From the NCBI GenBank assembly GCA_964505155.1, contig CAZDGL010000004.1, positions 4,110 to 68,109 of the forward strand: a stretch of 64,000 bases of DNA, written 5' to 3'. Numbering within the stretch: the first letter of the stretch is position 1; the number at the start of each line of letters is the position of its first letter. Below the pieces are notes generated by a model that worked only from the letters and a program-made list of their open reading frames with translations, was not told the origin of the DNA and made no database searches. The translations under genes were made by a program, and so were the position numbers. Of this stretch, positions 836 to 18,209 are shown one piece after another. Source of the stretch: an uncultured Candidatus Saccharibacteria bacterium (lineage in GTDB: Bacteria > Patescibacteriota > Minisyncoccia > Phycocordibacterales > UBA9973).

Positions 836-1192
836 ATGGCAACAGCAAAAAAAACAACCAAAAAAGCCCCTTCTAGCGAATTCGCAGTTATCAAAACTGG
901 GGGTAAGCAATACCGCGTAGCAGTGGGAGAGTCTATCAAGATTGAGAAGCTAAAAGGCGAGTTCAAAAAGGGCGACAAAGTAACCTTTTCTGAAGTTCTC
1001 CTTACTGACGATGGCAAAAACACAGTTATCGGTACTCCTTTTATCGATGGATCAAAAGTAGAAGCTGAGATAGAAATGATAGGCCGAGCTCAAAAGGTGA
1101 TAGTCCTCAAATACAAACAAAAGTCTCGCTACATGAAGAAAAATGGTCACCGACAGCCATACTTCAAAGTTAAAATAACTTCTATAAAATAA
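836..1192 (+). CDS. rplU: 50S ribosomal protein L21
   Basis: AVIKTGGKQYRVAVGESIKIEKL...GRAQKVIVLKYKQKSRYMKKNGHRQPYFKVKI is a typical L21. A TTGCAA-16-TATAAT promoter lies at 787-817. No L27 gene follows. Confidence 0.9.
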   Translation: MATAKKTTKKAPSSEFAVIKTGGKQYRVAVGESIKIEKLKGEFKKGDKVTFSEVLLTDDGKNTVIGTPFIDGSKVEAEIEMIGRAQKVIVLKYKQKSRYMKKNGHRQPYFKVKITSIK

Positions 1193-1198
1193 AACAAA

Positions 1199-1235
1199 AA
1201 ATCCCTCAAATTATTTTCAAATGAGGGATTTTTTA
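1199..1235. terminator. bidirectional rho-independent terminator
   Basis: Stem atccctca / tgagggat with a T-run on the plus strand and an A-run before it. It serves rplU (+) and the pilin gene (-). Confidence 0.6.
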
Positions 1236-1745
1236 TGGATTTGAGTAACAACCAACTCCAGTCCAGTAGGGTGTTTGACTAGGAGTCTTGTCAGACATTC
1301 CGCTTGATCCAATACAAAGAAACTGTCCATTGGGCAGACTAGCTACTATAGAATATTTACTATCTAAATCAAATGCATTACCAGAATAAAATCTCCATCC
1401 ATCTCCCCAAATACTCGGTGCACTGTTGGCCACTATGACTTTACATATTTCTCTTGCTTTTTGCGCATAGTTTCCTGAAAAAGAAGAGTCGCAAGGAGTA
1501 TTTGGTATCCAAGCATAAAAAGGGCTTGGTCCTGAGTACTGGAGATTTCTGTAGCTTCCAGTATCAGAGAATTCAAACTCAAGTAGTTTTTGAAACTCTT
1601 TCATTGAAGATGTTATGGCTGATATTTGAGCTTTTTTTCTAGCTTCGCTTATCCCGGCGATAACAACGCCTACTATAGCTCCTATTAGGGTTACAACAAC
1701 CATAAGTTCTATTAGGGTAAAGCCAGATTTTTTATTTTTTGTCAT
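1233..1745 (-). CDS. type IV pilin / pseudopilin with a prepilin N-terminal cleavage-methylation motif
   Basis: N-terminus MTKNKKSGFTLIELMVVVTLIGAI carries a class III signal (G|FTLIE plus a hydrophobic helix). The C-terminal part is Cys-containing and variable. Confidence 0.75.
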   Translation of the reverse strand: MTKNKKSGFTLIELMVVVTLIGAIVGVVIAGISEARKKAQISAITSSMKEFQKLLEFEFSDTGSYRNLQYSGPSPFYAWIPNTPCDSSFSGNYAQKAREICKVIVANSAPSIWGDGWRFYSGNAFDLDSKYSIVASLPNGQFLCIGSSGMSDKTPSQTPYWTGVGCYSNP

Positions 1746-1758
1746 TGCTTTTATTGTA

Positions 1759-2349
1759 TCATTCCCGTTTCTTTAGTGAAGCCTCAAGAGAAGCTGGGTC
1801 TGCGTATTCGAGTTCGGTGCCAGTTGAGAGTCCGCGCCCTAGGCTATTTACTTCCACAGTGTATGGGGCTAGGAGTTCACGAATTACAGAGTCCGTGTGA
1901 TCTCCGTTTGGAGTGATAGGGAAGCCGAGAATTATTTCGCTTATATTCTTTTCATTTTTCACCCTTTCTATCAAGAGCTTGGCATTTGTCCCATCGATTA
2001 TATCTTTCTTTGTTATCGGGATAAGAGAGCCTAGAACAAAAAACACTCCAGAGTAATCTGTCTTCATAAAGGCTTCTATGTCAGAGCCTTTTTCTACGAC
2101 TATGATTTTATCTTGGTCACGTTTTTCATTAGAGCAAATATCACAAATCCCTGCACTTCCTTCGTATATCCTCAAACATTTTGTACAAGTTTGCGCTGAA
2201 GCTTTAGCGGTGAGCAAACTTGCTGAAAGACTTTTGACGTAACTATCTTGTTGGCTCATTATAAAATAAGCAAATCTTTTTGCTTGCCGAGCTCCGATGC
2301 CAGGGAATTTGAGAAAAAGTCTTGTAAGTTGTTCTATATGATCTTGCAC
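1759..2349 (-). CDS. recR: recombination protein RecR
   Basis: HhH motif LFLKFPGIGARQAKRFAYF, C4 zinc finger CTKC...CDICS, and Toprim motifs IIVVEKGSDIEAF...GVFFVLG. Confidence 0.9.
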   Translation of the reverse strand: MQDHIEQLTRLFLKFPGIGARQAKRFAYFIMSQQDSYVKSLSASLLTAKASAQTCTKCLRIYEGSAGICDICSNEKRDQDKIIVVEKGSDIEAFMKTDYSGVFFVLGSLIPITKKDIIDGTNAKLLIERVKNEKNISEIILGFPITPNGDHTDSVIRELLAPYTVEVNSLGRGLSTGTELEYADPASLEASLKKRE

Positions 2350-2366
2350 AATTTTAATATTTTACA

Positions 2367-3749
2367 CTAAAAATCATCAAGTGATTTAGCTTTTGGTGCC
2401 GGCATGTGACTTTTGTCTATAGATAGAAGTGTTGTAGTTTTGGCATCAAAGAGTAGATCAACTTTGCCCACAGCACCGTTACGGTGTTTTTCTATAAGGA
2501 CTTCGATGATATTGTCTTTTTCCGCAGCGTCTTTGTACCTATCTTCTCGGTGAAGAAACATCACAACATCAGCATCTTGCTCGATAGATCCTGAATCACG
2601 CAAGTCTGAGAGACGAGGTTTGCCACCACGAGCTTCCACGGCACGAGAGAGCTGAGAGAGGGCAAGCACAGGGACGTCGAGTTCACGAGCGAGTTGTTTG
2701 AGTGCGCGAGAGATCTCAGTGATTTGATTGACCATGTTGTCATAGTTTTTACTTGCATGAATGAGTTGCAAATAGTCGATGACAATGAGCGCAAGACCGT
2801 GCTCACTCTTTAGTCTTCTTGCGACTGCTCGCATTTTTACAATACTATTGCCTGCTTGATCATCGATATATATAGGAGCTTTTTGTAGTCTACTCGCTGC
2901 ATCTTGAAGGGTAGCAAAGTGAGTAGAGGAGAGTCCGTGACCAGTTCTTATAGACCAAGCATCGACACGACTCTCGGCAGAGAGCATTCTTTGGACGAGT
3001 TGGTTGGCAGACATTTCTAGAGAAAATATCCCGACAGCACGCCCAGAGAGAGCCACATTTCTGGCAATGTCGAGTGCAAATGTTGTCTTACCGATACTTG
3101 GTCTCGCCGCCAATATCACCAAGTCAGATTTTTGTAGTCCCGCCAAGATATTGTCGAGATCTGGGAAACCAGTCGGTACTCCGCGTACTTCATCTTTGTT
3201 TTCTCTGAGGTATTCTATTTGTTCGACTGTTTCCATAAGGCCTTGCTTGATAGAGACAAAGCCATTTTTAACATTCATATTTGATGATACTCGGAAAATG
3301 CTTTTTTCGGCGCTATCCAAAATATCAGAGACATCTTGATCGGCTTCAGCATAGGCTTGGCTAGCTATTTGCTCTGATGCATCTATCAAGCTTCTGAGGA
3401 TGTATTTTTTGTAAACAATATCAGCATAGTGTCTGATATTTACAGTCGAAGGTACGCTTGCCATGATTTCATTTAGATAACTATTGCCACCGACTTCATT
3501 TATTTGCTTTTTTTCTTTGAGCTTGGAAGCGACAGAGAGTACATCTATTGGCTCACTCTTGGCAGAGAGCTCAAGCATAGTTTGAAAAATAGTTGCATGT
3601 TTGCGAGCATAAAACATTTCCGGCAAAATCAAATCAGTAATCTCATGTATTGCAGAAGGGCGAAGCATGAGGGCACCAAGTACTGCTTGCTCACTTTCGA
3701 GGGAGTGGGGTGGTATACGTAGATCCGATAGATTTGCTTTTGCTGACAT
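2367..3749 (-). CDS. dnaB: replicative DNA helicase DnaB
   Basis: N-terminal DnaB domain (SEQAVLGALM), Walker A ARPSIGKTTFAL, Walker B LIVIDYLQL, and RecA-like motifs. Confidence 0.9.
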   Translation of the reverse strand: MSAKANLSDLRIPPHSLESEQAVLGALMLRPSAIHEITDLILPEMFYARKHATIFQTMLELSAKSEPIDVLSVASKLKEKKQINEVGGNSYLNEIMASVPSTVNIRHYADIVYKKYILRSLIDASEQIASQAYAEADQDVSDILDSAEKSIFRVSSNMNVKNGFVSIKQGLMETVEQIEYLRENKDEVRGVPTGFPDLDNILAGLQKSDLVILAARPSIGKTTFALDIARNVALSGRAVGIFSLEMSANQLVQRMLSAESRVDAWSIRTGHGLSSTHFATLQDAASRLQKAPIYIDDQAGNSIVKMRAVARRLKSEHGLALIVIDYLQLIHASKNYDNMVNQITEISRALKQLARELDVPVLALSQLSRAVEARGGKPRLSDLRDSGSIEQDADVVMFLHREDRYKDAAEKDNIIEVLIEKHRNGAVGKVDLLFDAKTTTLLSIDKSHMPAPKAKSLDDF

Positions 3750-3804
3750 GTGTTAATCTTAGCATCTTTGCCAAGTTTCAAAAATCCACGATTTTTGGTA
3801 CTAT

Positions 3805-4791
3805 ATGCACATGATATCCACTAATTCTGGCTCAAAAAAACGTTTACTCTCAGGTGTAAAACCAACAGGTCGACCTCACATTGGCAACTATTTTGGGGCT
3901 ATGAAGCAGTTTGTGGATTTGCAAGAAGAGTACGACACTTTTGTGATGGTTGCTGATTTGCATGCTCTGAACTTTATTCAAAATAAAGAAGAAATGAAAT
4001 CTTTGACTTATGAGCTGATACTAGACTACTTGGCCATCGGTCTTGATCCAAAAAAGATTACACTTTTTAAACAATCCGCTGTTACTGCTCACACTAGCCT
4101 TACTTGGATTTTTGATACTTTGGTGACAGTACCTTTTATGATGAGAGCACATGCTTATAAAGATGCTATCGCAAAGGGGGTAGAGCCAAGTATGGGACTT
4201 TTCAACTATCCAGTTCTTATGGCAAGCGACATACTTCTTTATGATCCAGAAATTGTTCCTGTCGGCAAGGACCAAAAGCAACACATAGAATATGCGCGAG
4301 ATATTGCTCTTAAATTCAACAATCAATATCAAGAGATATTTAAACTACCAGAAGAATTGATAGTAGAAGATGTCGAAACAGTTCCAGGTACTGACGGACA
4401 AAAGATGAGTAAGAGTTATGGCAACACTATCCCACTTTTTGGAACAGATAATGAAATAGAAAAAGCAGTTATGAGTATCGCAACTGACTCTCGAGGCAAA
4501 GATGAAGAGAAAAATCCAGATGACATGGTGCTCTACCAAATCCACAAACTCTTCAACCATTCGGCAGAATTAAAAGCACAGTATACAAAAGGCTTAGGAT
4601 ATGGAGACGCCAAGAAAATGCTGATCGCTGATATTATCTCTTTTATCACTCCAATGCGAGAGAGAAGAAAGCGCTATGAAGACGATCCAAAGCTCGTCGA
4701 AGAAATACTCCTTCAAGGTGCGATCAAAGCCAACGAAGTAGCAATGAAGAAATTACAAGAAGTTTATGAAGCAGTAGGGTTAACAAACTAA
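3805..4791 (+). CDS. trpS: tryptophanyl-tRNA synthetase
   Basis: Class I HIGH-type motif SGVKPTGRPHIGNY and KMSKSYGN. The length of about 328 aa is typical of TrpRS. Confidence 0.85.
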   Translation: MHMISTNSGSKKRLLSGVKPTGRPHIGNYFGAMKQFVDLQEEYDTFVMVADLHALNFIQNKEEMKSLTYELILDYLAIGLDPKKITLFKQSAVTAHTSLTWIFDTLVTVPFMMRAHAYKDAIAKGVEPSMGLFNYPVLMASDILLYDPEIVPVGKDQKQHIEYARDIALKFNNQYQEIFKLPEELIVEDVETVPGTDGQKMSKSYGNTIPLFGTDNEIEKAVMSIATDSRGKDEEKNPDDMVLYQIHKLFNHSAELKAQYTKGLGYGDAKKMLIADIISFITPMRERRKRYEDDPKLVEEILLQGAIKANEVAMKKLQEVYEAVGLTN

Positions 4792-4795
4792 AACT

Positions 4796-6616
4796 ATGGA
4801 AGAAAAAGAAACAAGAGATTCATTGAAGAGCATTTTCCAAACCTCAAAGAGAGCGTTTCTTTTTGGTTTTAAAAAAGAACCAGGTTTGATGACTATCAAC
4901 CTAGTGTTAAATATACTTTTAGCTGCACTCGTTTATGTACAGTTGTCGTCTTTCTCTAAGGTTGTTGATGAAATTATTTTTATAAAAGCTAATGGAGGAG
5001 TTTTAACAAAAGCCCTCCTTTATAATTCAATTATTCTTGGATTATCATTTTTAATTCCATCAGTATTACAAAATCTGCATAATAGATTTGCAGAAAATTT
5101 ACGTATGAAGTATGGGACACATGCTCAGTTACTCAGAGTAGATTCAATTTCAAAATTAGATGTAGGTACTATAGAAAGTACAGAATTTCAAACAAAAATA
5201 GAGAGAGCAGAACAGTGGGGTGTTGGCTGTCTCAACAACCTTACAATGCTTACTTTTAGTGTTATAAGAAATATAGCTTCAGTTATTACCTCCGCTGTTA
5301 TTCTGTATGTTATCAACCCTTGGCTTGTTTTACTGGCAGCTATTAGTGGTTTGCCTTTTTACTTCATACAAAAAAAATACGGTTTTCAGATTTATCGTTT
5401 GTATCATGATAGAACAGACGAGTCTAGAATTATGAGAGATAGAAACTCTTTTTTTAATGATAAGAAAAAAATAGTAGAAGTTATATTATTTAGCCTTGGT
5501 TTAAGATTTAGAAATGATATAGAACAAGCGAATGTATCGTTCGACAATAAAATACTCAATGTATTTCGTAAAAGATCAAATGTAACTTTTTTCTATGACT
5601 TTATAAGTGTTGCGTGTTTGTTGTTTGCTATCGCTCTTGTTACATTACAAACAATAAAAGGAGATATTTTGGTTGGTTCGCTTTTGCTTGCCTTCACTAC
5701 CTATAGGAGTTTTACTGCTGTTGTACAGGATTTTTATGCAAACATAACTCGTATGGAAGATCAATCTCGTTACTCTAAGAGATGGTTTGATGTCTTCGAT
5801 ACAAATCCTAAAATTTTAAATAGCAAAAATGCTATAAAACCAAATTGGCAGACTCCTCCAGTTATAGAATTTAAAAATGTTTCTTTTGCATACCCTGAAA
5901 CAGAAAAACAGGTTTTAAAAAATATTTCTTTCACTTTAAATACCGGAGAAAAACTCGCTGTTGTAGGAGAAAATGGCGCTGGAAAAACAACACTTATAAA
6001 ACTTTTATGCAGAGTATATGACCCAACAGAAGGAGAAATATTGATAGATGGTGTAAATCTTAAAGAAATAGATCTTGACCATTGGAGAAATTATTTAGGT
6101 GTTTTGTTTCAAGATTTTTCTAGTTTCCAAATGACAGTAAAAGAAGCTATTGCGATCTCTCGTCCAAATGAAAGGTTAGATGAAGAAAAAGTTAGATATG
6201 CGGCTGAAATGTCTGGAGCGGTAGACTTTATAGAAAATTTTCCTAAAAAATACGATCAACTTATTTGGAAAGGATTTCAAGATGGAGTAGAGCTTTCAAA
6301 AGGTCAGCACCAAAGAATGGCGGTGGCGCGTATCTTTTATCGTGATGCATTTATCTCTATACTCGACGAACCAACTTCTGCTATAGATGCAGTAGCAGAA
6401 GAGAAAATATTTGAAGTCCTTGAAAAGAAAATGGAAGGCAAAACAGTGATACTTATCTCGCACCGATTTAGTACAGTGAAAAATGCTGATCAAATAGCAG
6501 TCATAGAGCATGGAGAACTCAAAGAACTCGGTAGTCACAAGGATTTGATGGCAAAGAAGGGAAGATATGCAGAGCTCTATACTATGCAGGCGAGTAGGTA
6601 TTTGGAGAGTGAATAG
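4796..6616 (+). CDS. ABC transporter, fused permease and ATPase (exporter type)
   Basis: N-terminal 6-TM domain. Walker A GENGAGKTT, signature LSKGQHQR, Walker B ILDEPTSAID. No C39 peptidase domain. Confidence 0.8.
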   Translation: MEEKETRDSLKSIFQTSKRAFLFGFKKEPGLMTINLVLNILLAALVYVQLSSFSKVVDEIIFIKANGGVLTKALLYNSIILGLSFLIPSVLQNLHNRFAENLRMKYGTHAQLLRVDSISKLDVGTIESTEFQTKIERAEQWGVGCLNNLTMLTFSVIRNIASVITSAVILYVINPWLVLLAAISGLPFYFIQKKYGFQIYRLYHDRTDESRIMRDRNSFFNDKKKIVEVILFSLGLRFRNDIEQANVSFDNKILNVFRKRSNVTFFYDFISVACLLFAIALVTLQTIKGDILVGSLLLAFTTYRSFTAVVQDFYANITRMEDQSRYSKRWFDVFDTNPKILNSKNAIKPNWQTPPVIEFKNVSFAYPETEKQVLKNISFTLNTGEKLAVVGENGAGKTTLIKLLCRVYDPTEGEILIDGVNLKEIDLDHWRNYLGVLFQDFSSFQMTVKEAIAISRPNERLDEEKVRYAAEMSGAVDFIENFPKKYDQLIWKGFQDGVELSKGQHQRMAVARIFYRDAFISILDEPTSAIDAVAEEKIFEVLEKKMEGKTVILISHRFSTVKNADQIAVIEHGELKELGSHKDLMAKKGRYAELYTMQASRYLESE

Positions 6617-6686
6617 TACTTGCTTTTATACAAATTTATTGTACATTGTATTTGAAAATAAACTGTAAACAACAAAAAACTAAATA

Positions 6687-7295
6687 ATGAAAAAACAAGC
6701 TATTTCGCCTGCCTTTTTAAGGCAGAAACGCTCAGAGATTGAAACTCTTGATTTTACACAATTGAAATCAAAGCTCATGGATAAAGAAGAGGGTAAAGGC
6801 TGGACTGCCAAGATGTGCGATGCTGTAGAAGTGTTGTACAAGCAATTTTTACTCATCATTCTCAAATATCCTGACAGAGACATTGTGCCTACGAAACAGG
6901 TTGATGACTTCTGGCATGCTCATATTCTGGATACCAGGAGATACCACAGTGACTGCAAAAAGATTTTTGGTCACTATATTCATCACTATCCATATTTTGG
7001 ATTAAGAGGCGAAGAAGATGCACAAAACTTGAAGGATACTTTTTCTAAAACGAAAAAAATCTGGAAAGAGGAATTTGGTATAATGCCTACCATCAAAGGA
7101 GCTGTTTGTGGTGCTGGTGGAGGGAAATGTAAATCCTCTGTTTGTGGTTCTACTTGCGCAGGGCGGTGTCGTTCTAAAAGGATTAAATCATCATTTTGTT
7201 CTGCTGGCGGTGGAAACTGTGTTAGTTCTTGTGCGCAACAAGGTAATTGCGTTAGTTCCTGTAAAAGAGAAAAGCCTATTAAAAAAGCTGCTTAG
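6687..7295 (+). CDS. protein with a GRDP/DUF1399-like N-domain (tentative) and a Gly/Cys-rich repetitive C-terminal tail
   Basis: The motif DDFWHAHILDTRRYHSDCKKIFGHYIHHYPY was recalled from memory as resembling the glycine-rich-domain-protein family. The tail CGAGGGKCKSSVCGSTCAGRCRSKRIKSSFCSAGGGNCVSSCAQQGNCVSSCKRE has 10 Cys in about 55 aa with GGGxCxSSxC repeats. That the ORF is a real CDS is more certain than the family call. Confidence 0.4.
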   Translation: MKKQAISPAFLRQKRSEIETLDFTQLKSKLMDKEEGKGWTAKMCDAVEVLYKQFLLIILKYPDRDIVPTKQVDDFWHAHILDTRRYHSDCKKIFGHYIHHYPYFGLRGEEDAQNLKDTFSKTKKIWKEEFGIMPTIKGAVCGAGGGKCKSSVCGSTCAGRCRSKRIKSSFCSAGGGNCVSSCAQQGNCVSSCKREKPIKKAA

Positions 7296-7305
7296 TGACT
7301 ATAAG

Positions 7306-7334
7306 GCCCTGTAGTTAATACAGGGCTTTTCTTA
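7306..7334 (+). terminator. rho-independent terminator
   Basis: Stem gccctgt / acagggc followed by ttttctt. Confidence 0.55.
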
Positions 7335-7407
7335 TACTTGCTTTTATTTACAAAATATGTTATAATATAAAAAATAACAAAATTGTAAAACTTTAAAAAC
7401 AAAATAA

Positions 7408-8685
7408 ATGAAAAGAGTCTATTCGCTTGCTGATTTTGGTGTCAAAAAACATCAGATGGTACTTAAAAATGGTCTGAAAGTTATCTTTATTGAAAAGCCT
7501 TTTGCGCCTATATATGCCAAGATAGTTATGGCTGCTGGTTCTCTCTGGAATCCTTCCGATAACGGATTAGCTCATATGACAGAGCACTTACTCATGAACG
7601 GTTCTAAAAATATTTCAAAAGAAAACTTTTATGGAATTATGGAGTCCATTGGTGGACTTCGTAATGCTTTTACTGCAAAAGACTGGATGTCGGTGAATAC
7701 AGAAGTTGCTATTGTGGAGCATTTGCCAAAAGTACGAGAGTTTTTTACTCATGCACTTGAAAGTATTTATGTCACCGAAGAAATGCTTCAAAAAGAAAAA
7801 GAAGTGATTTTTTCTGAGCTTCAAAAAGCTCGTTCAAATCCACACTATGATTCTGGGGAGCAAATGAGAAAAATATTGGCACAAGACACCCCTTATAGTT
7901 ATTCAAATCTAGGAAAAATTGAAGGCATTAATGCTATTAGTGTTTCTGAAGTTGAAAAGTTTTTTGAAACTTATTGTGTTGTAGAAAACATGGTGCTAGT
8001 AATTGCTGGAGGTTGTACACTTTCCGATATTGAAAATACATTCTCTGATATTTCCTTTTTAAGAGGGGAAAAAGCAGTGTTACCTCAAAGTCCATTACCG
8101 GTCACCACTCCACAAAGATTTTTTTGTGAATTAGATTTACCACAAACAGATATTCTCGCTGGTTTTAATGGTCCACTTCCCGGAAGTCGAGATTCGTATG
8201 TATTAGGATTTGCTATGAATATTCTTCATAACGGTATGAATTCTCATTTCTATAGAAAAATACGAAATGAAAAAGCGCTCGCCTATAGTATTAGTAATAT
8301 CGCATTTCAGTATAATGAAATGAAATATATCGGTACTGAGATTGGTGTACCGCAACAAAAAGTAGACGAGGCAACAGATGTACTTATTGATACGTACAGA
8401 GAGTTGCTTGTTATGGGTATATCGCAAGAAGAACTTTCTAATAAAGCAGCAGCCTGGGGGTTCTCAGCAAAAAGAGTAGTTGAAAGATCTATCGATTGGG
8501 TAGAAAAATTTGATGACTGTTTGTTTGAAGAAATAGATCCTGTTGTTGGGGACTTTCCTGATATTCACAATTTTCGTCAAACAGTTACTGAAGAAGAGGT
8601 GAGAACGGTTTTTGATAAGTATATCCAGCTCGGCAATTTTCATTTATGTGTTTTTGGAAAACATGCACCTAAACAGTACTTTTGA
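7408..8685 (+). CDS. M16-family (pitrilysin/insulinase-like) zinc peptidase
   Basis: Inverted zinc motif HMTEHLLMNGS (HxxEH) near the N-terminus, with a downstream Glu-rich region. The 425-aa length fits an M16B active subunit. Confidence 0.8.
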   Translation: MKRVYSLADFGVKKHQMVLKNGLKVIFIEKPFAPIYAKIVMAAGSLWNPSDNGLAHMTEHLLMNGSKNISKENFYGIMESIGGLRNAFTAKDWMSVNTEVAIVEHLPKVREFFTHALESIYVTEEMLQKEKEVIFSELQKARSNPHYDSGEQMRKILAQDTPYSYSNLGKIEGINAISVSEVEKFFETYCVVENMVLVIAGGCTLSDIENTFSDISFLRGEKAVLPQSPLPVTTPQRFFCELDLPQTDILAGFNGPLPGSRDSYVLGFAMNILHNGMNSHFYRKIRNEKALAYSISNIAFQYNEMKYIGTEIGVPQQKVDEATDVLIDTYRELLVMGISQEELSNKAAAWGFSAKRVVERSIDWVEKFDDCLFEEIDPVVGDFPDIHNFRQTVTEEEVRTVFDKYIQLGNFHLCVFGKHAPKQYF

Positions 8686-8691
8686 TTTAGA

Positions 8692-8720
8692 AGCCCCCGC
8701 GCAGTGCGGGGCTTTTTTTT
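8692..8720 (+). terminator. rho-independent terminator
   Basis: GC stem gccccgc-gcagt-gcggggc followed by T8. Confidence 0.8.
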
Positions 8721-8747
8721 GTGGGAGGTTTTGGGTGTCCCGTTAGA

Positions 8748-8790
8748 GATGTATTTCTTGAGAAAAGTTGTTAATTGCGCTACAATCACA
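8748..8790 (+). promoter_or_regulatory. putative sigma70-type promoter for aspS (TTGAGA-17-TACAAT)
   Basis: Hexamers at correct spacing, read by eye. Confidence 0.4.
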
Positions 8791-8859
8791 ATGTAAATAT
8801 TGATTAATTTATTAAATAATTTGGATACGGACATCTTAGGATGTCCTATCTCTAACGGG

Positions 8860-10284
8860 ATGGATAGAACTTACATTGGAGATTTAGGAACAAAAGCAGG
8901 CGAGAGCGTTCTTATAAAAGGCTGGGTGGATGTGCGTCGTGATCAGGGCAAAATGGTGTTTTTCGATTTTCGGGATATGACTGGCACTATCCAAGGTGTA
9001 GTTCTGCCAAACCGTGCTGAAGTGATAGAGATAGCCAAGACTTGCCGACCAGAGAGCGTGCTAGAAGTACAAGGCATCGTCAACAAGCGCCCAGAGCGCA
9101 ATGTCGTCGCTGACAAAGTAAACGGTGATATTGAGCTTGAAGTGACTGCTATCACTATCCTCAACAACGCAGAACCACTTCCATTTGAAGTGAACATAGA
9201 TACCAAAGATGTGGGTGAAGAGACTCGTCTCAAGTATCGCTATCTCGATCTTCGTAGCGCTCGTATGCAACGCAACATCCGCACTCGTGATGCGGTGATT
9301 CACCATGTGCGAAGTTATCTTCATGATCAAAAGTTTATAGAAGTAGAAACTCCTATCCTTACGAAAAGTACTCCTGAAGGAGCGCGTGACTATGTGGTGC
9401 CATCTCGTTTGTATCCAGGACACTTCTATGCACTTCCGCAATCTCCGCAACAATACAAACAACTCCTTATGTCAGGTGGTATTGAAAGATATTTTCAAAT
9501 AGCAAAATGTATGCGCGATGAAGATGGGCGAGGAGACAGACAGCCAGAGTTTACTCAGCTCGATATGGAAATGTCTTTTGTAAAGCGTGATGATGTGATG
9601 GCACTCAACGAAGCTCTTCTTATAGATATAGTCACCAAGCTTTTCCCAGAAAAACGCATTCAGCAAATTCCATTTCCTCGTATTTCATACAAAGAATCAA
9701 TGGAAAAATACGGCAATGACCGACCAGATATTCGCACTGACAAGGAAGATCCAAACCTTTTGGCTTTTTGCTGGATCGTAGACTTTCCATTTTTTGAGCG
9801 CACCGACAAAAGCGACAACCCACAAGCAGAAGGCGAGTGGACATTTACTCACAACCCATTTTCTCGCCCTATCGAAGAGCACATGAGCGCTCTGATGGAA
9901 AAGAAAGACTTGGCAGATATTTTGACGACACAGTACGACATTTGTCTCAACGGTTATGAGATAGGTGGCGGATCTATCCGTAACCACACATATGAAGCTC
10001 TGGCAAAAGTATTTGAAATCCTTGGACACAAACAAGAAGATATAGAAAACAACTTCGGTCACATGCTTCACGCTTTCAAAACTGGTACTCCGCCACACGG
10101 AGGCATCGCTTGGGGTCTCGATAGATTTCTCATGCTACTTCTAAACGAACCAAACATTCGTGAAGTTATGGCATTTCCAAAGACTGGAGAAGGCAAGGAT
10201 CCGATGATGCAAGCACCTTCTATGATAGCTGACAAACAACTCGATGAGCTTCATTTAGTGCTTAAGAAAATAGATAAGAAATAG
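8860..10284 (+). CDS. aspS: aspartyl-tRNA synthetase, short form apparently lacking the GAD insertion
   Basis: OB-fold N-domain. Class II motifs FRDMTG, QSPQQYKQLLM, GSIRNH and GLDRFLM. The track ORF begins at a TTG at 8800. The ATG at 8860 (MDRTYIGDLG) is the more likely start. Confidence 0.85.
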   Translation: MDRTYIGDLGTKAGESVLIKGWVDVRRDQGKMVFFDFRDMTGTIQGVVLPNRAEVIEIAKTCRPESVLEVQGIVNKRPERNVVADKVNGDIELEVTAITILNNAEPLPFEVNIDTKDVGEETRLKYRYLDLRSARMQRNIRTRDAVIHHVRSYLHDQKFIEVETPILTKSTPEGARDYVVPSRLYPGHFYALPQSPQQYKQLLMSGGIERYFQIAKCMRDEDGRGDRQPEFTQLDMEMSFVKRDDVMALNEALLIDIVTKLFPEKRIQQIPFPRISYKESMEKYGNDRPDIRTDKEDPNLLAFCWIVDFPFFERTDKSDNPQAEGEWTFTHNPFSRPIEEHMSALMEKKDLADILTTQYDICLNGYEIGGGSIRNHTYEALAKVFEILGHKQEDIENNFGHMLHAFKTGTPPHGGIAWGLDRFLMLLLNEPNIREVMAFPKTGEGKDPMMQAPSMIADKQLDELHLVLKKIDKK

Positions 10285-10288
10285 ATCT

Positions 10289-11290
10289 ATGTCAGAGTAT
10301 TTTCCAGGAGTAAATCAAAAGATACAGGAATACGCGCTAAGAATTTTAAACGGTGAAAATCCAGATGATGTCCTTGAGGGAGCAGATGTATTTCGCCCTG
10401 CGGTAGAAGCAGCGGTGGCTGAGTACAGAGAGAAACAAAAACAAAATCTTGAATCACTAAACAATGAAGGCAAAGAACTCTCCATGGAGAATCCAGTAAT
10501 TTCTGAAGAAATAGTCGAACAAAGAGAAAAGGATGAGGAAGAAAAAATAGAAGCCTTAAGATCCGATTTGCAAAAAGAACTTAGTGCAGAACAAACAGAT
10601 CCTTTTGCTCATCAACAGGCATATGAAGGTGCGGGTGAGGACTATAAACAAGGCGTCCAAATATATAACACTTTTATGAATATAGGAAAAGGGATTAGTG
10701 AAGGATTAAAAGAGTCTTTTGATCCAAAGGTACAGCAGTACGTAAATGAAATACGTTCAGGAAAATCAAAAGAGTATGTTCTTGGTGGTGCCCCAAAGAG
10801 TATAGTTGATGCTGTAGAAAAAGAGTTAGCGAAAGATGTTATAAAAAACAGCACAGAAGAGAAAAAAGCATACATAGAAAATTTAGAAGAGTTAAATAAT
10901 AAGTTATCAGATTTATCTAAAGATTATTATTTTCTTACACACCAGACCTACGTTGATTTCGCTGAAAAAATAAATAAAGAAGATTTTTTGTTTCAAGGTG
11001 GAGGTCTTAATACTACTACTCTTGCGCAAGGTCCAGATGGTATTACACTTTCTTTAAAAAAGATGGAAGAAGGTGAGTCACATCGAAACTCTGACAGTAT
11101 GGTAATTTTTGCCATTCCTAAAGAAGAATTTAAGAAGTATTCTGGAGATAGACGATTTGGTCCTGATGAATTTGCTGAAATGTTAATAGACACAAAGTTA
11201 GAAGAGATTAATAAAACAGGGAAACTACGTATACCTCATGAATATGTTCTTGGCGTGTATGAAAAAGGTAAGGGTTTTTTGTTGAATTAA
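10289..11290 (+). CDS. hypothetical acidic protein
   Basis: ORF 4 nt after aspS. No recognisable motif. Confidence 0.45.
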   Translation: MSEYFPGVNQKIQEYALRILNGENPDDVLEGADVFRPAVEAAVAEYREKQKQNLESLNNEGKELSMENPVISEEIVEQREKDEEEKIEALRSDLQKELSAEQTDPFAHQQAYEGAGEDYKQGVQIYNTFMNIGKGISEGLKESFDPKVQQYVNEIRSGKSKEYVLGGAPKSIVDAVEKELAKDVIKNSTEEKKAYIENLEELNNKLSDLSKDYYFLTHQTYVDFAEKINKEDFLFQGGGLNTTTLAQGPDGITLSLKKMEEGESHRNSDSMVIFAIPKEEFKKYSGDRRFGPDEFAEMLIDTKLEEINKTGKLRIPHEYVLGVYEKGKGFLLN

Positions 11291-11335
11291 GTAGGTAGAT
11301 TCCGGACAGTTTTCTTTCGAAAACTGCATAGAAAA

Positions 11336-11360
11336 ACCCCGCAAGGTGCGGGGCTGGTTT
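11336..11360. terminator. terminator, mainly for the minus-strand gene
   Basis: Stem ccccgca / tgcgggg with a T-run on the minus strand. Confidence 0.5.
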
Positions 11361-11664
11361 AATTGGTTGAGTAAAATGAAAGGTGAGCTTCTTTAAGATA
11401 GCTTACTGCTTCTTCCAAACTATTCCCTTTGTAATTCTGAAATGGACTCTCTACTCTCAAAAGAGTTTTTTCTTCTGTTGTTTTTTCGCAAGAACCTTGG
11501 AAAAAAGTAGTTCCTTCAGATGAGTTATTCCGATCTTTGAAGCAGAGCTCTTCTGTTGCCACATTTTCTTTATACTCAATACCAAGTTCATCACAGGCTT
11601 TTTTAAAACCTGTAAAAATTTCTGAATGTCTCATATTGTTTTTTTGTGATTCTAGCACAGCCAT
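11359..11664 (-). CDS. hypothetical protein
   Basis: ORF with its own terminator. No motif recognised. Confidence 0.4.
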   Translation of the reverse strand: MAVLESQKNNMRHSEIFTGFKKACDELGIEYKENVATEELCFKDRNNSSEGTTFFQGSCEKTTEEKTLLRVESPFQNYKGNSLEEAVSYLKEAHLSFYSTN

Positions 11665-11721
11665 AAAAAGGTTGCCATAACCTCGAAAAAAGCTTAGAAA
11701 TCAGCTATAATTACAGAACAA

Positions 11722-12498
11722 ATGGAAACTGAAAGCTTACAATTTCAAGTGAAGCACGAAGTATTTGAAGGACCGATAGAGGTCCTCCTTGAGCTCATCG
11801 AAAAGCGTAAACTTTTTGTCAACGACATTTCTCTCGCTAGTGTTACTGATGACTTTATCTCTTATATCCAAAATCGTGGGATGCATCCAGAATATGTCGC
11901 GTCATTCTTATCTGTGGCAGCAACACTACTTCTTATCAAAGCTCGTTCACTTCTACCAAACCTCGAGCTTACAACCGAAGAGAGTGAGTCTATCACCGAA
12001 CTCGAGCGTCGTGTTGCTCTGTACCAAATAGTCTCTGAAGCTTCCAAGTGGCTCTCAGCAAAATACGGCAAAAAAATATGCTTCGAAGGATCTCCTAGAC
12101 TCTCTGGTGTAGTTTTTGCGCCAGATGCAAAGCTTTTGGCAAGTGATTTACCAGGACTTATCTTTGATGTGGCTCTCAAGGTTCCACCACCAAAACCCAA
12201 ACAAGTAGAAGCGCGGGTTTACAAAACTATCTCTATTTCTGAAGTTATCAATACTTTGCATGAGAGGATAGAGAGGGCGCTCAGTGTAAACTTTAGCGAC
12301 ATCGCTCTCCAAGCCGAAGGTACAGATCAAAAAGAAAAAAAGGTCTATGTCATAGTGTCTTTTCTTGGTATGCTAGAGCTAGTTCGTAGAGGATTTGTCG
12401 AGGCCGAGCAGGAGGGAAGTTTCCAAAACATTCGCCTCCAAAAACAAGAACAAAAGCCCTCAGAGAATCTTGAAAAAATAGAGGAGTCATATGAATAA
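11722..12498 (+). CDS. scpA: segregation and condensation protein A
   Basis: FEGPIEVLLELIEKRKLFVNDISLASVTDDFISYI is the ScpA N-terminus. The gene overlaps the start of scpB. Confidence 0.8.
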   Translation: METESLQFQVKHEVFEGPIEVLLELIEKRKLFVNDISLASVTDDFISYIQNRGMHPEYVASFLSVAATLLLIKARSLLPNLELTTEESESITELERRVALYQIVSEASKWLSAKYGKKICFEGSPRLSGVVFAPDAKLLASDLPGLIFDVALKVPPPKPKQVEARVYKTISISEVINTLHERIERALSVNFSDIALQAEGTDQKEKKVYVIVSFLGMLELVRRGFVEAEQEGSFQNIRLQKQEQKPSENLEKIEESYE

Positions 12499-13027
12499 TA
12501 AATTATCACAACAAATAGAAAGCTTACTTTTTGCGACTGCCGAAGCTCAGAGTTACAAGAGCTTGGCAGAGAGACTAAATGTCACTTTGGAGGAGGTCAA
12601 AAGCGCACTAGAGGAATTGGAAAAGTCTTTGGAAGGGCATGCTATGGCTCTCGTGCGTGATGGCGAAAGTGTGTCTATGGTCACGCGCAGTGAACACAGT
12701 GCTCTTATAGAAGCTATCCAAAAAGATGCTTTGTCCAAAGAGCTTTCCAAGGCCAGTGCTGAAACTCTCTCTATCATTTCTTACCAAGCTGGCATTTCCA
12801 AAGCGCAGATAGAGTTCATCCGCGGGGTCAATGTCTCTTACTCACTTAGAGCACTCTCTATGAGAGGGCTTATCGAGGCCCGTGGCTCTGGTAGGTCTGT
12901 CGGATATTATCCAACTCTTCAAATGCTTGAGCACTTTGGGGTCAGCAAGGTAGAGGAGTTGCCACAGTTCACTGAAACCTCAGAAAAAATCAAAAAATTA
13001 TTAACACAAGAGTCACAAGAAGAATAA
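12491..13027 (+). CDS. scpB: segregation and condensation protein B
   Basis: IESLLFATAEA...TLSIISYQAGISKAQIEFIRGV has ScpB winged-helix motifs. Confidence 0.8.
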   Translation: MNNKLSQQIESLLFATAEAQSYKSLAERLNVTLEEVKSALEELEKSLEGHAMALVRDGESVSMVTRSEHSALIEAIQKDALSKELSKASAETLSIISYQAGISKAQIEFIRGVNVSYSLRALSMRGLIEARGSGRSVGYYPTLQMLEHFGVSKVEELPQFTETSEKIKKLLTQESQEE

Positions 13028-13028
13028 T

Positions 13029-14087
13029 ATGCAAAGCATCCAAATCCTAAACGTTGTCAAAATTTTCTTACCTACTGCACTAACTTTTGCTATAGGTATT
13101 TTGCTTACGCCTAGACTTACTGCTTTGATGTACAAACATAAGCTTTGGAGAAAAAAGAAAAGAACTGAAGATTCTGAAATAACAAACAAAGACTTTGCAA
13201 AAGTAAATGACGGTATCGCTGAGACTTCTACTCCGCGGGTGGGAGGGGTAATCATTTGGCTTGCTGTTACTCTCTCTATATTTATAATGTGGTTTATTTC
13301 CAAAGCTTTTCCTTCAGATCTCTCTAGTAAGTTAGACTTTTTGAGTCGTGGACAAACTTTGGTACCGTTAGCTTCTTTGCTCCTTGGCGCTTTTGTTGGT
13401 CTAGTAGATGATTGGGCTCAGATTCGCGGAGTTGTAGAGAGTTTGAATCATCGCAGGGTTAAGATTTTGGTAGTTATGGTCATCGGAGCTTTGATAGGCG
13501 CTTGGTTTTATTTTAAGCTCGGTATCACTTCAGTAGCTATACCTTTTGCTGGTCATATCGCACTTGGCTGGTTATTTATACCGTTTTTTGTTGTTGTTAT
13601 GGTGGCGGTTTTCTCAGGTAGTGTCATAGACGGTATGGATGGTTTAGCTGGTGGGGTGCTAGCTATTATCTTTGCTTCTTATGCAGCGATAGCCTATGGC
13701 AAGAATTTGGTCGATATCGCTGCTCTTTGCGGAGTGATTTCTGGAGGGATACTAGCTTTTCTTTGGTTCAACATTCCACCAGCTCGGTTTTATATGGGGG
13801 AGACGGGGATACTTGGGCTTTTGGTTGTTTTGACTGTCGTGGCATTCCTCACTGATACTGTTTTTGTTTTGCCGATTATCGCTTTTCCTTTGGTGGCTAC
13901 AACTGCTTCAAATATTATTCAAATCACAAGTTATAAATACTTTGGAAAGCGTCGAGTTTTCAAGATTGCACCACTGCACCATCATTTTCATGCTCTTGGT
14001 TGGCCTCGAGAAAAGGTTGTGATGAGATACTGGGTGGTTTCTGTTGTTTGCGCTGTTTTGGGCATAGTAGTAGCTCTTATTGGTTAA
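13029..14087 (+). CDS. mraY: phospho-N-acetylmuramoyl-pentapeptide transferase
   Basis: Motifs TPRVGGVII, LVDDWAQIRG and DGMDGLAGG, with a polytopic membrane profile. Confidence 0.85.
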   Translation: MQSIQILNVVKIFLPTALTFAIGILLTPRLTALMYKHKLWRKKKRTEDSEITNKDFAKVNDGIAETSTPRVGGVIIWLAVTLSIFIMWFISKAFPSDLSSKLDFLSRGQTLVPLASLLLGAFVGLVDDWAQIRGVVESLNHRRVKILVVMVIGALIGAWFYFKLGITSVAIPFAGHIALGWLFIPFFVVVMVAVFSGSVIDGMDGLAGGVLAIIFASYAAIAYGKNLVDIAALCGVISGGILAFLWFNIPPARFYMGETGILGLLVVLTVVAFLTDTVFVLPIIAFPLVATTASNIIQITSYKYFGKRRVFKIAPLHHHFHALGWPREKVVMRYWVVSVVCAVLGIVVALIG

Positions 14088-14093
14088 GCTGTT

Positions 14094-15224
14094 ATGAATA
14101 TATTTAAAAATTCAATACAAAAACAAGAACCTTTTGATAAATACTTTTTTTGGATAGTTATGCTGATCTCGGGTCTTGGGCTTTTATCTTTTGTCTCGGC
14201 TTCTTTGGGGATACTCGCCAAAAGTGAAAGCAAGTTTTATGGAGTGCTCTTTAACCAAATAGTTTTAGGATTTATTTTGGGGTTTTTGGTTTTGTGGGTC
14301 TTTGCGCGGATACCATATACTTTTTGGCGTAAGTATTCTTTTTATATTTTTTTGGGAGCTGTCATTCTCACTCTTTGTGTTTTTGTCCCTGGACTTGGTT
14401 TTGAGCACGGTGGAGCAAGGCGCTGGATATCTATAGGTCCTATATCTTTTCAACCAGCAGAAGCACTCAAAATAGCTTTTGTGATTTATTTTTCTGCTTG
14501 GCTAGCTTGGACTCGGAAGCGCCAAGAAGATATAAAGTTTCGCATTATTCCTCTTTTTGTAATACTAGCAGTTGTAGCTTCTTCGCTTTTGTTTCAGCCG
14601 GATACCAAAAGTCTTATCCTCATCACCATCTCTGCTTGTGGCATGCTCTTTACTTCTGGAGTTTCTTGGAAAAAAATAATAATCATCGGAGTTATTGGTT
14701 TTGGGGCGATCACTGTGCTTGCCTTTGTCCGGCCTTATGTTATGGAACGTATCAAAACCTTCATCAATCCCGCTAGTGATCCTAGAGGCTCTTCCTATCA
14801 ACTCCAACAATCTTTGATAGCTATTGGCTCCGGCGGAGCCTTTGGCCGAGGATTGGGACAAAGTGTACAAAAATTCAACTATCTACCAGAGCCTCAAGGA
14901 GACTCTATCTTTGCGGTGATAGGAGAGGAGTTTGGGTTTTTGGGAACAACCCTTTTGCTCACCTTGTATGTATTTTTTGCAATTCGAGGATTTAAGATTG
15001 CTTTGCGAGCGCCTGATACATTTTCTCGTTATTTGGTAGTAGGGCTGGTCACTCTTTTGACTGCGCAATCATTTCTAAACATCACTTCATTAGTTGGGCT
15101 TTTCCCGCTCACTGGTGTACCTCTGGTCTTTATAAGTCACGGCGGGACTGCTTTGATGGTCGCTTTGGGGGCAGTAGGAATCATTTTAAACGTGTCTCGA
15201 TACAACAAAAAGACTGTAGTATAA
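14094..15224 (+). CDS. ftsW: SEDS-family peptidoglycan polymerase (FtsW/RodA), here in the FtsW position
   Basis: GARRWISIGPISFQPAEALKI. The gene sits between mraY and murG. Confidence 0.8.
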   Translation: MNIFKNSIQKQEPFDKYFFWIVMLISGLGLLSFVSASLGILAKSESKFYGVLFNQIVLGFILGFLVLWVFARIPYTFWRKYSFYIFLGAVILTLCVFVPGLGFEHGGARRWISIGPISFQPAEALKIAFVIYFSAWLAWTRKRQEDIKFRIIPLFVILAVVASSLLFQPDTKSLILITISACGMLFTSGVSWKKIIIIGVIGFGAITVLAFVRPYVMERIKTFINPASDPRGSSYQLQQSLIAIGSGGAFGRGLGQSVQKFNYLPEPQGDSIFAVIGEEFGFLGTTLLLTLYVFFAIRGFKIALRAPDTFSRYLVVGLVTLLTAQSFLNITSLVGLFPLTGVPLVFISHGGTALMVALGAVGIILNVSRYNKKTVV

Positions 15225-15234
15225 TGAAAGAACG

Positions 15235-16362: not shown

Positions 16363-16365
16363 AAA

Positions 16366-16406
16366 AAGACTCGACACATTTTGATTTTATAGTGTCGAGG
16401 CTTTTG
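16366..16406. terminator. bidirectional terminator
   Basis: Stem ctcgacac / gtgtcgag with T-runs on both strands. Confidence 0.55.
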
Positions 16407-16408
16407 AG

Positions 16409-16750
16409 TTACGCTTTTCTTTTAAATATCCATATTTTTTTGCCTGGAGTCATATAGCTTATAACCCACACAGTTAAAGGTATAAAAATTTTATACCCTC
16501 CAAATATTAAACTCATTCTTTTAGCAGTTTTAAAGTCAGCTAAAAATGATAGTCCTATAAAAAATAAAACAATAAGACCTATCCCTGAAGCAAAACTCCA
16601 ATAACGATCTTTCGCACGCTCTGTTTGAATATTAGGGCATGCTTTATATGTAGCGTATTGATCAGCGTGCTGAGCTATAAAAAGAAGGTTTATAATTGCA
16701 AATAATATACTAATTACGGCAAAGATTATAGATAAATATGTACTTATCAT
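16409..16750 (-). CDS. hypothetical small membrane protein
   Basis: The ORF was trimmed to an internal Met (MISTYLSIIF) because the longer track ORF would overlap the gltX start. It has 3-4 TM helices. Confidence 0.4.
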   Translation of the reverse strand: MISTYLSIIFAVISILFAIINLLFIAQHADQYATYKACPNIQTERAKDRYWSFASGIGLIVLFFIGLSFLADFKTAKRMSLIFGGYKIFIPLTVWVISYMTPGKKIWIFKRKA

Positions 16751-16825
16751 AATACAAAAGATTTCTTTAACTTTATACTTTTTTCTGTTTTTGTCAAAAA
16801 AGCCTTTATTTGCTAAAGTGTTTGT

Positions 16826-18163: not shown

Positions 18164-18171
18164 AAATAAAT

Positions 18172-18205
18172 AACCCCCAACACTTTATGTTGGGGGCCTT
18201 TGATA
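18172..18205 (+). terminator. rho-independent terminator
   Basis: Stem cccccaaca / tgttggggg followed by a weak T-run. Confidence 0.5.
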
Positions 18206-18209
18206 GCTT

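Follow-up and report, generated by a model that had tools for sequence, protein, structure and literature searches.

The 64-kb stretch of DNA analysed here (the window, meaning the whole stretch) comes from an uncultured Candidatus Saccharibacteria bacterium and carries, between the genes of an ATP-binding cassette (ABC) exporter and an M16 zinc peptidase, a gene (6687-7295, the Cys-rich gene) for a 202-amino-acid (aa) protein whose C-terminal part is rich in glycine, serine and cysteine. Our results establish that this protein is a bona fide member of a family that couples a helical, histidine- and aspartate-rich domain with short cysteine-containing peptides, fused to the domain or encoded beside it. 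Most often the peptide trails the domain as a disordered C-terminal extension; a few members have it as N-terminal repeats, and in others it is a separate upstream open reading frame (ORF) accompanied by a gene for a MATE-like membrane protein. The fused-or-split pattern suggests a maturase-plus-substrate system resembling those that produce peptides made by ribosomes and modified after translation (RiPPs), and we infer from the conserved residues and the gene architecture that the domain acts on the cysteines of the peptide, most simply as a metal-dependent enzyme. The exporter, the Cys-rich gene and the peptidase gene would be separately promoted genes in a variable slot and not a dedicated three-gene system; joined with the proposed mechanism, this stands in our judgement at about an even chance.

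A helical domain coupled with cysteine-rich peptides

The initial annotation had likened the N-terminal domain of the Cys-rich protein, which contains DDFWHAHILDTRRYHSDC...HHYPYFG, to the plant glycine-rich domain proteins (GRDPs; DUF1399), and a profile search bears this out in part. The GRDP-like model PF07173 scores above its gathering score, but by a small margin (23.5 against 22.7 bits, E=1e-4, residues 51-89), and the match is partial, covering only the last 43 of the 143 model positions (101-143), as it does in other bacterial members. A better fit is PF27765 ('UCP032817-like'), which is precomputed for a protein 100% identical to that of the window (P0001) and for 72 of 73 other homologues, an assignment that is the database's annotation of the identical protein. 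Plant GRDP1 and GRDP2 carry a homologous domain with a common WHxHxLDT...HHxPYFG signature, followed, as in the window protein, by a low-complexity glycine-rich region; the bacterial tails differ in being rich in cysteine.

A first homology search returned 74 proteins from many phyla, nearly all of them PF27765. Their alignment has six invariant residues (P68, D73, W76, H77, H79 and P102) and ten nearly invariant ones (D82, T83, Y86, D89, C90, H99, H100, Y103, F104 and G105), every one of which is present in the window protein, so that the signature D-x2-W-H-x-H-I-L-D-T ... D-C ... F-G-x3-H-H-x-P-Y-F-G is complete. AlphaFold2 (AF2) models the window protein as a six-helix domain, with a block-mean predicted local distance difference test score (pLDDT) of 94-98 over residues 11-130, followed by a tail that is predicted to be disordered (pLDDT ~45-55), and gives the same picture of a confident six-helix domain and a disordered tail for a short-tail member, P0014. 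The four-cysteine tail of P0014 (pLDDT ~50) is not docked on the histidine site, which leaves a folded Cys/His minidomain unsupported. Foldseek found no relative of the domain in the PDB, and a sequence-profile search gave only a chance match. A reading of the HxH motif as a JAMM site (HxHx7Sx2D) was rejected on spacing and on the all-alpha fold.

The tail of the window protein holds ten cysteines in GGGxCxSSxC-type repeats, as the initial annotation had described, within 52 residues (141-192) and not the 55 it gave. The repeats read GGGKCKSSVC, GGGNCVSSC and QGNCVSSC, the modules include KSSVCGSTCAGRC, and the tail ends in the motif KPIKKAA. Tandem Repeats Finder detected no tandem repeat in the DNA of the tail, the repetition being at the protein level only, and neither a signal peptide nor a hydrophobic segment was found in the protein. 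Among close relatives in the clade, aligned tail positions are 76-82% conserved, compared with 74-84% for the domain, while whole NCVSSC modules and an insert of 22-24 aa have been gained or lost. Since the aligned tail residues are conserved like the domain, we take the tail to be functional sequence and not the product of drift.

The same coupling extends over a very large family. When 1.84 billion cluster representatives were searched with a profile, 15,309 matched at E<=1e-3, of which 8,061 reached E<=1e-10; the family is spread over minimal bacteria of the candidate phyla radiation (CPR), plasmids of plant pathogens, and plants. Among 214 representatives, 193 (90%) have a tail with at least two cysteines and 134 a tail with at least four, and cysteine accounts for 8.0% of the residues in tails but for 1.5% in the domain. 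Several tail classes are conserved across genera (CKAPKCRTQCKPMKCK; DCWHDCxxRCWHACS; RCxDHACHAPSSCACR; STCAGRC; GSGTGCGQGC), and others are tandem repeats built on an invariant aromatic-cysteine pair in 4-14 copies (AAYCGAA, AAWCGAA, AAFCIKA, SFCTAPEA, AYCMKA), with one variant, P0193, having every cysteine replaced by serine. An RP[T/S][L/F]-like motif is present in the last 25 residues of at least 56 tails, and the KPIKKAA of the window protein occupies the equivalent position. The few members with N-terminal repeats are of actinobacterial type (PARCDSDEAAE). Other architectures were seen at the edges of the family. Four eukaryote-like members (P0074, P0124, L178 and L181) have the domain fused to a ubiquitin/SUMO-like domain, which in P0074, L178 and L181 ends in Gly-Cys (...RLVGC, ...RLTGC, ...ALRGC) and not Gly-Gly. 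Membrane-anchored variants with a transmembrane helix and a divergent domain (L101 2869-3567, on the megaplasmid of Ralstonia solanacearum, and P0120) have a tail of almost only glycine and cysteine (GDGCGGGCCGDGCGGGCGGD), and about 22 Ralstonia records hold one.

Tail-less members show the split form. On plasmids of Pseudomonas savastanoi (including 1448A) and of Halomonas, recovered from plasmid matches, the tail-less gene is preceded by an ORF of 42-44 aa that ends in GGGGHCQGGGGW or GGGHCQGGGSW and is followed by a gene for a polytopic membrane protein of ~440 aa, the Halomonas one being a weak MatE match. The small ORF of the 1448A plasmid has the accession WP_011282443.1. A metagenome scan seeded with tail-less proteins brought up this arrangement again and again. 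Over all fetched loci, a six-frame search detected 22 that encode a peptide with the C-terminal motif HCQG[G/D]G (mostly HCQGGG[G/S]W), in every case immediately upstream of a tail-less member. The small upstream ORFs of split loci measure 26-60 aa and vary in their N-terminal part, partner identity in HCQG-type loci spans 46-63%, and a polytopic membrane protein of 433-466 aa follows wherever enough downstream sequence was read. One plasmid copy of this unit lies beside a gene for a TonB-dependent receptor. A Piscirickettsia plasmid has a tail-less member with an upstream small ORF ending in ...CMANCSGNCQS, and the upstream ORFs of other tail-less members end in ...QHCEGRW, ...GHCMPAPPW, ...PACCN and ...SNCG; no convincing Cys/Gly small ORF was seen beside the two tail-less members of an initial set of 86 loci.

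A candidate cysteine-directed enzyme and its alternatives

In the mechanism we propose, the six-helix domain of ~130 aa (Asp/Trp/His/His...His-His-x-Pro-Tyr-Phe-Gly) would act on the cysteines of an attached or adjacent peptide, probably as a metal-dependent enzyme or at least as a specific binding module. This would make the window protein a maturase fused to its substrate, following the working principle of borosins and BURP proteins with an unrelated domain, a reading that we offer tentatively and place somewhat below an even chance. If the modified tail were released and exported, resident peptidases and exporters such as the M16 enzyme and the ABC protein could serve opportunistically. 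Extended to the family, the UCP032817/GRDP-like domain may be the single maturase of an unrecognised and very widespread class of cysteine peptides, in which the peptide is either fused (~90% of cases, the window protein being one such enzyme-substrate fusion and, more distantly, the plant GRDPs) or encoded as an upstream HCQGGGGW ORF with MATE-like export; we hold this wider claim to be possible and advance it with reserve. A RiPP-like precursor had been among the readings suggested earlier for the Cys-rich protein, and the fused and split architectures lend that idea support at the level of the family, although no maturase of a known class (radical S-adenosylmethionine (SAM), YcaO, LanB/M/KC, MNIO and similar) was recognised beside the gene between 836 and 19792.

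Enzyme-substrate fusions of this general design have precedents in fused and split borosins (PMC10549244) and in BURP cyclases (PMC12186524, PMC11253845). Borosins of the OphMA type and BURP cyclases likewise join a conserved domain to a variable, often repeated core, and in related systems the peptide is separate. The likeness is one of working principle only: Pfam and Foldseek reveal no sequence or fold relation with the PF27765 domain, and the apparent target is cysteine, whereas borosins modify backbone amides and BURP cyclases Tyr or Trp. Enzymes of the S9 prolyl oligopeptidase type release the fungal borosin omphalotin. S9 genes also adjoin CPR members of the PF27765 family, an alpha/beta-hydrolase gene of the prolyl-oligopeptidase family (~300 aa) lying next to the member, mostly convergently, in seven CPR loci (L010, L015, L055, L057, L060, L069 and L085) whose tails are very unlike one another.

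Dioxygenases provide a further link with tailoring enzymes. A TauD-type iron/2-oxoglutarate dioxygenase is fused N-terminally to the domain and a CWHDC-type tail in three proteins (P0121, P0148 and P0197), and a TauD gene is adjacent in at least 11 loci, in six of which (L035, L039, L068, L073, L077 and L086) it stands directly upstream of a member with a DCWHDCxxRCWHACS tail. In L039 the TauD gene is itself preceded, two genes further on, by one for a radical-SAM protein. Members with short tails (..SCRPQRCP in L049, ..GCKSQNCP in L097) belong to an operon in which the UCP032817-like gene is joined by genes for a class I SAM methyltransferase, a TauD-like dioxygenase and a UvrA-like ATPase of ~1440 aa, and which occurs in Myxococcota, in Acidobacteriota and on an Azospirillum plasmid (L049 9686-16353; L031; L097 4962-10354). 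The operon on the Azospirillum plasmid sits beside Dcm, DUF2357 and Vsr genes, a setting like that of a defence island.

The split loci, though not the window gene, also recall methanobactin, whose operon combines a small cysteine peptide, an iron enzyme, the MATE exporter MbnM and a TonB receptor. They likewise bring together a cysteine-containing precursor-like ORF, a histidine-rich protein and a MATE-like protein, but hold no homologue of MbnB/MNIO (DUF692) or of MbnC, and the PF27765 domain is small and helical and not a TIM barrel. A unit of peptide, domain and membrane protein also resembles a cluster for a bacteriocin, its immunity and its export, and the domain might accordingly be a non-catalytic chaperone, carrier or immunity protein to which the cysteine peptide (a bacteriocin-like toxin or signal), in cis or in trans, stays bound before it is exported; the position of the Halomonas unit beside LuxR/LuxI genes could be read in this sense. 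We consider such a role improbable. The histidine, aspartate and tryptophan residues are invariant across phyla and kingdoms, which is unusual for immunity proteins, it is hard to see why 90% of members should have a toxin covalently joined to the protein that confers immunity to it, and the TauD fusions point to chemistry.

Returning to the proposed cysteine-directed enzyme, several observations weigh against it. The case for an enzyme role is drawn from the conserved His/Asp residues and the gene architecture, and since Foldseek finds no relative in the PDB the domain has no catalytic precedent. Many non-repeat tails look like metallothioneins, with CxC, CxxC and CxxxC spacings and histidine beside cysteine (as in CWHDCxxRCWHAC and HACHAPSSCAC). 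Most fused members, including those of the largest tail class, are standalone genes with no conserved neighbour, a pattern that fits a self-sufficient enzyme-substrate fusion and equally a simple metal-binding protein. On the latter alternative the protein would handle a metal (Zn, Cu, Fe or Ni), which the domain, through its His/Asp/Cys site, and the flexible, thiol-rich tail would bind, buffer or pass on, in the manner of a metallochaperone with its variable tail or of a metallothionein joined to a carrier domain. This reading gains from the density of cysteines in the window tail, from the lack of a signal peptide or hydrophobic segment in the window protein, and from the variable length and occasional absence of tails, a trait of the His/Cys-rich tails of metallochaperones too. 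We nevertheless judge it unlikely. Single cysteines every 10-15 residues after an invariant aromatic are atypical of metal sites, and the repeat of P0193 does without cysteine altogether; the split form with its HCQGGGGW ORF and MATE-like protein resembles an exported product; and in the AF2 models the tail stays undocked. Among the recurrent neighbours that could be named (TauD, methyltransferase, UvrA-like ATPase, S9, sensor kinases, GGDEF and housekeeping genes) we recognised neither a transporter nor a regulator of metals, and none of TauD, the methyltransferase, the UvrA-like ATPase and S9 is a metal-homeostasis gene.

Exporter, peptidase and promoters in a variable slot

The initial annotation correctly recognised the genes on either side of the Cys-rich gene as those of a half-size ABC exporter and of an M16 peptidase with an HxxEH motif (Table 1), and had raised, tentatively, the idea of the three genes as one unit of exporter, substrate and peptidase. 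Such a module, in which the M16 enzyme would cut the tail off the Cys-rich precursor, the adjacent ABC protein would export it and duplicated promoters would co-regulate the genes, is best judged against relatives. Genomic contexts were collected by exact-protein look-ups for relatives of the Cys-rich protein, by a profile-guided scan with one genome per species (more than 591 loci, of which 80 were kept), and by look-ups for M16 orthologues; a first metagenome scan with the single M16 protein had given nothing, and the M16 contexts were then taken from exact-protein look-ups.

Table 1. Features of the window and of related loci (positions are those of the window unless a locus is named)
Feature	Position or locus	Strand	Basis or remark
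TrpRS	3805-4791	+	ORF calling
Half-size ABC exporter (transmembrane plus nucleotide-binding domain), 606 aa	4796-6616	+	PF00005 and N-terminal hydrophobic blocks
Putative promoter-leader of Cys-rich gene	6617-6686	+	read from sequence
N-terminal UCP032817-like / GRDP-like domain (aa 1-135)	6687-7091	+	profile, alignment and AF2
Gly/Ser/Cys-rich tail (aa 136-202 and stop codon)	7092-7295	+	sequence, AF2
Intrinsic terminator after Cys-rich gene	7303-7329	+	free energy (dG) -16.8 kcal/mol
Putative promoter-leader of M16 gene	7335-7407	+	read from sequence
M16B-type zinc peptidase, 425 aa	7408-8685	+	PF00675, PF05193, HMTEH
Intrinsic terminator after M16 gene	8695-8711	+	7-bp stem, 6 GC pairs, T-run
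AspRS	8800-10284	+	ORF calling
Slot: Cys-rich gene, M16	window, L005, L183
Slot: Cys-rich gene, 363-aa ORF, M16	L008
Slot: 114-aa ORF, Cys-rich gene, ClpP	L091
Slot: methyltransferase, 274-aa ORF, Cys-rich gene, 159-aa ORF	L001-4
Slot: methyltransferase, Cys-rich gene	L007
Slot: second ABC, Cys-rich gene	L093
Slot: methyltransferase, M16, without Cys-rich gene	L088, L089, L090
Slot: second ABC, M16, without Cys-rich gene	L184
Slot: other genes, M16, without Cys-rich gene	L185
Three-gene split unit	L094 4763-6751; L095 4719-6700; L098 2503-4595; L103-L115, L118-L120, L122, L130

Within the clade of the window the frame is constant (DnaB, then TrpRS-ABC-slot-AspRS-ScpA-ScpB-MraY) and variation is confined to the slot. 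The trio does recur in three relatives (L005, L008 and L183), so that the initial expectation of co-localisation in related genomes holds to that extent; elsewhere the genes occur independently. Counted by lineage, four have both the Cys-rich gene and M16, six have M16 only, and four have the Cys-rich gene only (L007, L001-4, L091 and L093). One of the M16-only cases, L087, has the peptidase gene in an unrelated context, and L007, the closest relative by its ABC protein (94% identity), is nonetheless without M16. A tblastn search with the window ABC and M16 proteins placed no M16 gene within 10 kb at any of 79 genome loci other than L008, and outside the clade the same search gave only a few weak or incidental ABC matches. 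The M16 subfamily itself comprises ~40 clusters at >=42% identity and sits ahead of AspRS whether the Cys-rich gene is there or not. The ABC gene begins 4 nt past the TrpRS stop codon in the window, 3-14 nt after TrpRS in most clade genomes and 48-176 nt after it in L091 and L185, and keeps this position in relatives with and without the Cys-rich gene. We regard the ABC and M16 genes as residents of the block because the slot varies while both keep their place regardless of the Cys-rich gene, which, like several others, has moved into or out of the slot; the single unit of exporter, substrate and M16 peptidase is thereby left unsupported. An interpretation of the slot as integron-like cassettes was rejected, since a promoter and a terminator accompany each gene and inverted repeats like those of attC were not seen. 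In L007 the ABC gene and the downstream methyltransferase gene read as a single 853-aa ORF (7371-9932), through either a true fusion or an artefact of assembly or frameshift.

The upstream regions of the Cys-rich and M16 genes do share the features first reported for them: both open with TACTTGCTTTTAT, both have the same TTGCTT -35 element and their -10 elements differ. This 13-nt word has only two exact copies in the 64 kb, at 6617 and 7335, lying 70 nt and 73 nt before the start codons of the Cys-rich and M16 genes, respectively. The predicted promoter of the Cys-rich gene consists of TTGCTT (6620-6625), a 16-nt spacer and a TG-TACATT -10 element (6640-6647), with AAACTGTAAAC and then AAAAACTAAATA right before the ATG. 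That of the M16 gene would comprise TTGCTT (7338-7343), a 17-nt spacer and the extended -10 element TGtTATAAT (7358-7366), with AAAATTGTAAAAC and then TTTAAAAACAAAATAA right before the ATG. A MAFFT alignment of the two regions has 58 invariant columns over ~100, and their local alignment score of 22.5 ranks second among 465 upstream pairs in the window (mean 9.4, standard deviation 2.5), the first-ranking pair being an artefact of two divergent genes with one common intergenic region. The intrinsic terminator between the two genes folds far better than chance (z-score -4.87; 0 of 200 shuffles fold as well); no terminator was seen between the ABC stop codon and the promoter of the Cys-rich gene. 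The word TTGCTTTTA was considered as a genome-wide promoter word and rejected, its other copies in the window lying in coding sequence or on the wrong strand, with the exception of a related -35 element upstream of 30762.

This similarity had been taken to indicate a duplicated promoter and co-regulation. The resemblance itself is real and is kept in relatives, where the module is a succession of terminator hairpin, T-run, (TA)CTTGCTTTT, TG-extended -10 element, AAAnTTGTAAA and TTAAAAACnAAATA, ahead of the ATG. It precedes the Cys-rich gene in L183, L007, L001 and L091 and the M16 gene in L183 and in L184, the latter having no Cys-rich gene; but it also precedes the ClpP gene of L091 and the 159-aa ORF of L001, which occupy M16's usual position, and so does not mark M16 specifically. 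The motif AAAnTTGTAAA, between the -10 element and the M16 start codon, recurs in the module. Orthologous comparisons score higher (64.5 for the M16 upstream regions of the window and L183 and 34 for those of their Cys-rich genes) than paralogous cross comparisons between the two genomes (19 and 27.5). Among the window, L183 and L184 the M16 upstream region is ~87% identical compared with 71-75% for M16 coding DNA, values from one gap-lenient aligner that inflates identity in A+T-rich sequence, so that only the relative comparison is meaningful; it suggests that the M16 promoter-leader is under strong regulatory constraint. More distant M16 orthologues have TTGACA as the -35 element and retain the leader TTTAAAAACnAAATAAATG. 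A shared riboswitch or attenuator was rejected because Rfam matches no known RNA in either leader and both leaders fold no better than shuffled sequences. The similarity is older than this genome, and on the best reading it represents a conserved promoter-leader of the slot, maintained by selection. Such a promoter-leader may have been copied or retained whenever a gene was inserted or replaced in the slot, which would permit co-regulation of any occupant, and its presence upstream of both genes is not in itself a tie between M16 and the Cys-rich protein.

The ABC protein has a C-terminal ABC_tran domain (PF00005, 108 bits) and four hydrophobic blocks in its N-terminal part, and no match to the Pfam Peptidase_C39 domain. 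Its architecture is MsbA-like, although it scores far under every NCBIfam equivalog cut-off, among them those of MsbA (263.5 bits against 602), TIGR01193 (174.5 against 523.85) and TIGR03796 (209 against 853, the match beginning at model position 159). These values bear on a comparison with NHLP/Nif11 precursors, which likewise join a large conserved N-terminal domain to a hypervariable, Cys-rich C-terminal region and would find in the window an adjoining ABC exporter. NHLP/Nif11 systems, however, use ABC exporters with a C39 peptidase, and a maturase of a known class would be expected beside the precursor, in contrast to what surrounds the window gene; most PF27765 family members have no exporter nearby, and their N-domain keeps invariant His/Asp residues, unlike a degenerate leader.

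The M16 protein has both domains of its class above the gathering score (PF00675, 52.8 bits; PF05193, 91.6 bits), the zinc motif HMTEH at residues 56-60 and a glutamate at 137; no signal peptide was found in it. With both domains and an intact HxxEH it invites comparison with the M16 maturation peptidases PqqF/G, AlbE/F and PttP1/PttP2. M16 proteases remove RiPP leaders in some pathways, and the RiPP-linked enzymes described are heteromeric (PMC10885120). The window, by contrast, has a single M16 gene and no gene for a paired subunit by tblastn over its 64 kb, the PqqF equivalog model TIGR02110 gives 38.7 bits where its cut-off is 320, and the orthologues are anchored beside AspRS independently of the Cys-rich gene.

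For the proposed module of M16 cleavage, ABC export and co-regulated promoters, the pattern of M16 presence and absence argues against a dedicated arrangement, and so do the attachment of the ABC gene to TrpRS, its lack of a C39 domain and the recurrence of the promoter module before other genes. Two observations at the locus pull the other way. In all eight clade lineages that have it, the Cys-rich gene has an ABC exporter upstream, directly or one or two genes away, and a peptidase (M16, ClpP in L091, or S9) adjoins the family member in most CPR loci, which together make a local functional link possible. These two points and the exporter-like gene of the split systems, to which the recurrence of the trio and the conserved common promoter-leader may be added, keep us from rating the module lower than we do, namely as unlikely.

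The remaining neighbourhood is largely that of core genes. From 836 to 19792 the identifiable neighbours are ribosomal protein L21, a pilin-like protein, RecR, DnaB, TrpRS, ABC, M16, AspRS, ScpA/B, MraY, FtsW, MurG and GluRS (DnaB and RecR upstream on the minus strand; ScpA, ScpB, MraY, FtsW and MurG downstream, with names taken from annotated relatives), and the few remaining ORFs in this interval have no Pfam match. The window has a G+C content of 34-42%, and the closest database relatives carry the label Candidatus Paceibacterota, which places the window in a genome of the CPR (Patescibacteria). A 333-aa Glu/Lys-rich ORF (10289-11290, plus strand) without a Pfam match lies between AspRS and ScpA and is missing at this position in L001, L005 and L183. 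The pilin-like protein (1233-1745, minus strand, 170 aa) is of type IV, has a prepilin-type N-terminal methylation motif and adjoins RecR. Two long ORF-free spacers (16363-16825, 463 nt; 23391-23728, 338 nt) interrupt an otherwise compact genome and yield nothing in Rfam at the gathering threshold. Only one RNA gene was detected in the window, that of tRNA-Glu(CTC) (42230-42303).

Meaning for the family

PF27765 is catalogued in Pfam as an uncharacterised family with no known function and no solved fold; NCBIfam has no model for any member, and PADLOC and PHROGs returned nothing relevant. The literature we searched (subscription journals lay outside the search) returned plant papers or nothing for DUF1399, GRDP, UCP032817, PF27765 and HCQGGG, and contained neither the fused-or-split cysteine pairing nor the HCQGGGGW ORFs nor the TauD fusions. 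Plant GRDPs have been studied through phenotypes only, namely stress, auxin response and seed size (PMC4299439, PMC8585784, PMC13001069), and a biochemical function is known for neither PF07173 nor PF27765.

The gene trio represents ordinary locus structure, and its middle gene matters more, opening as it does a family of ~15,000 sequence clusters. Should the domain prove to be a cysteine-directed maturase, it would constitute a new enzyme class in ribosomal peptide biosynthesis, present even in minimal CPR genomes, and would provide a biochemical handle on the plant GRDPs. The fused-or-split pairing makes the function testable in a tractable organism, Pseudomonas savastanoi pv. phaseolicola 1448A, whose large plasmid carries the split unit.

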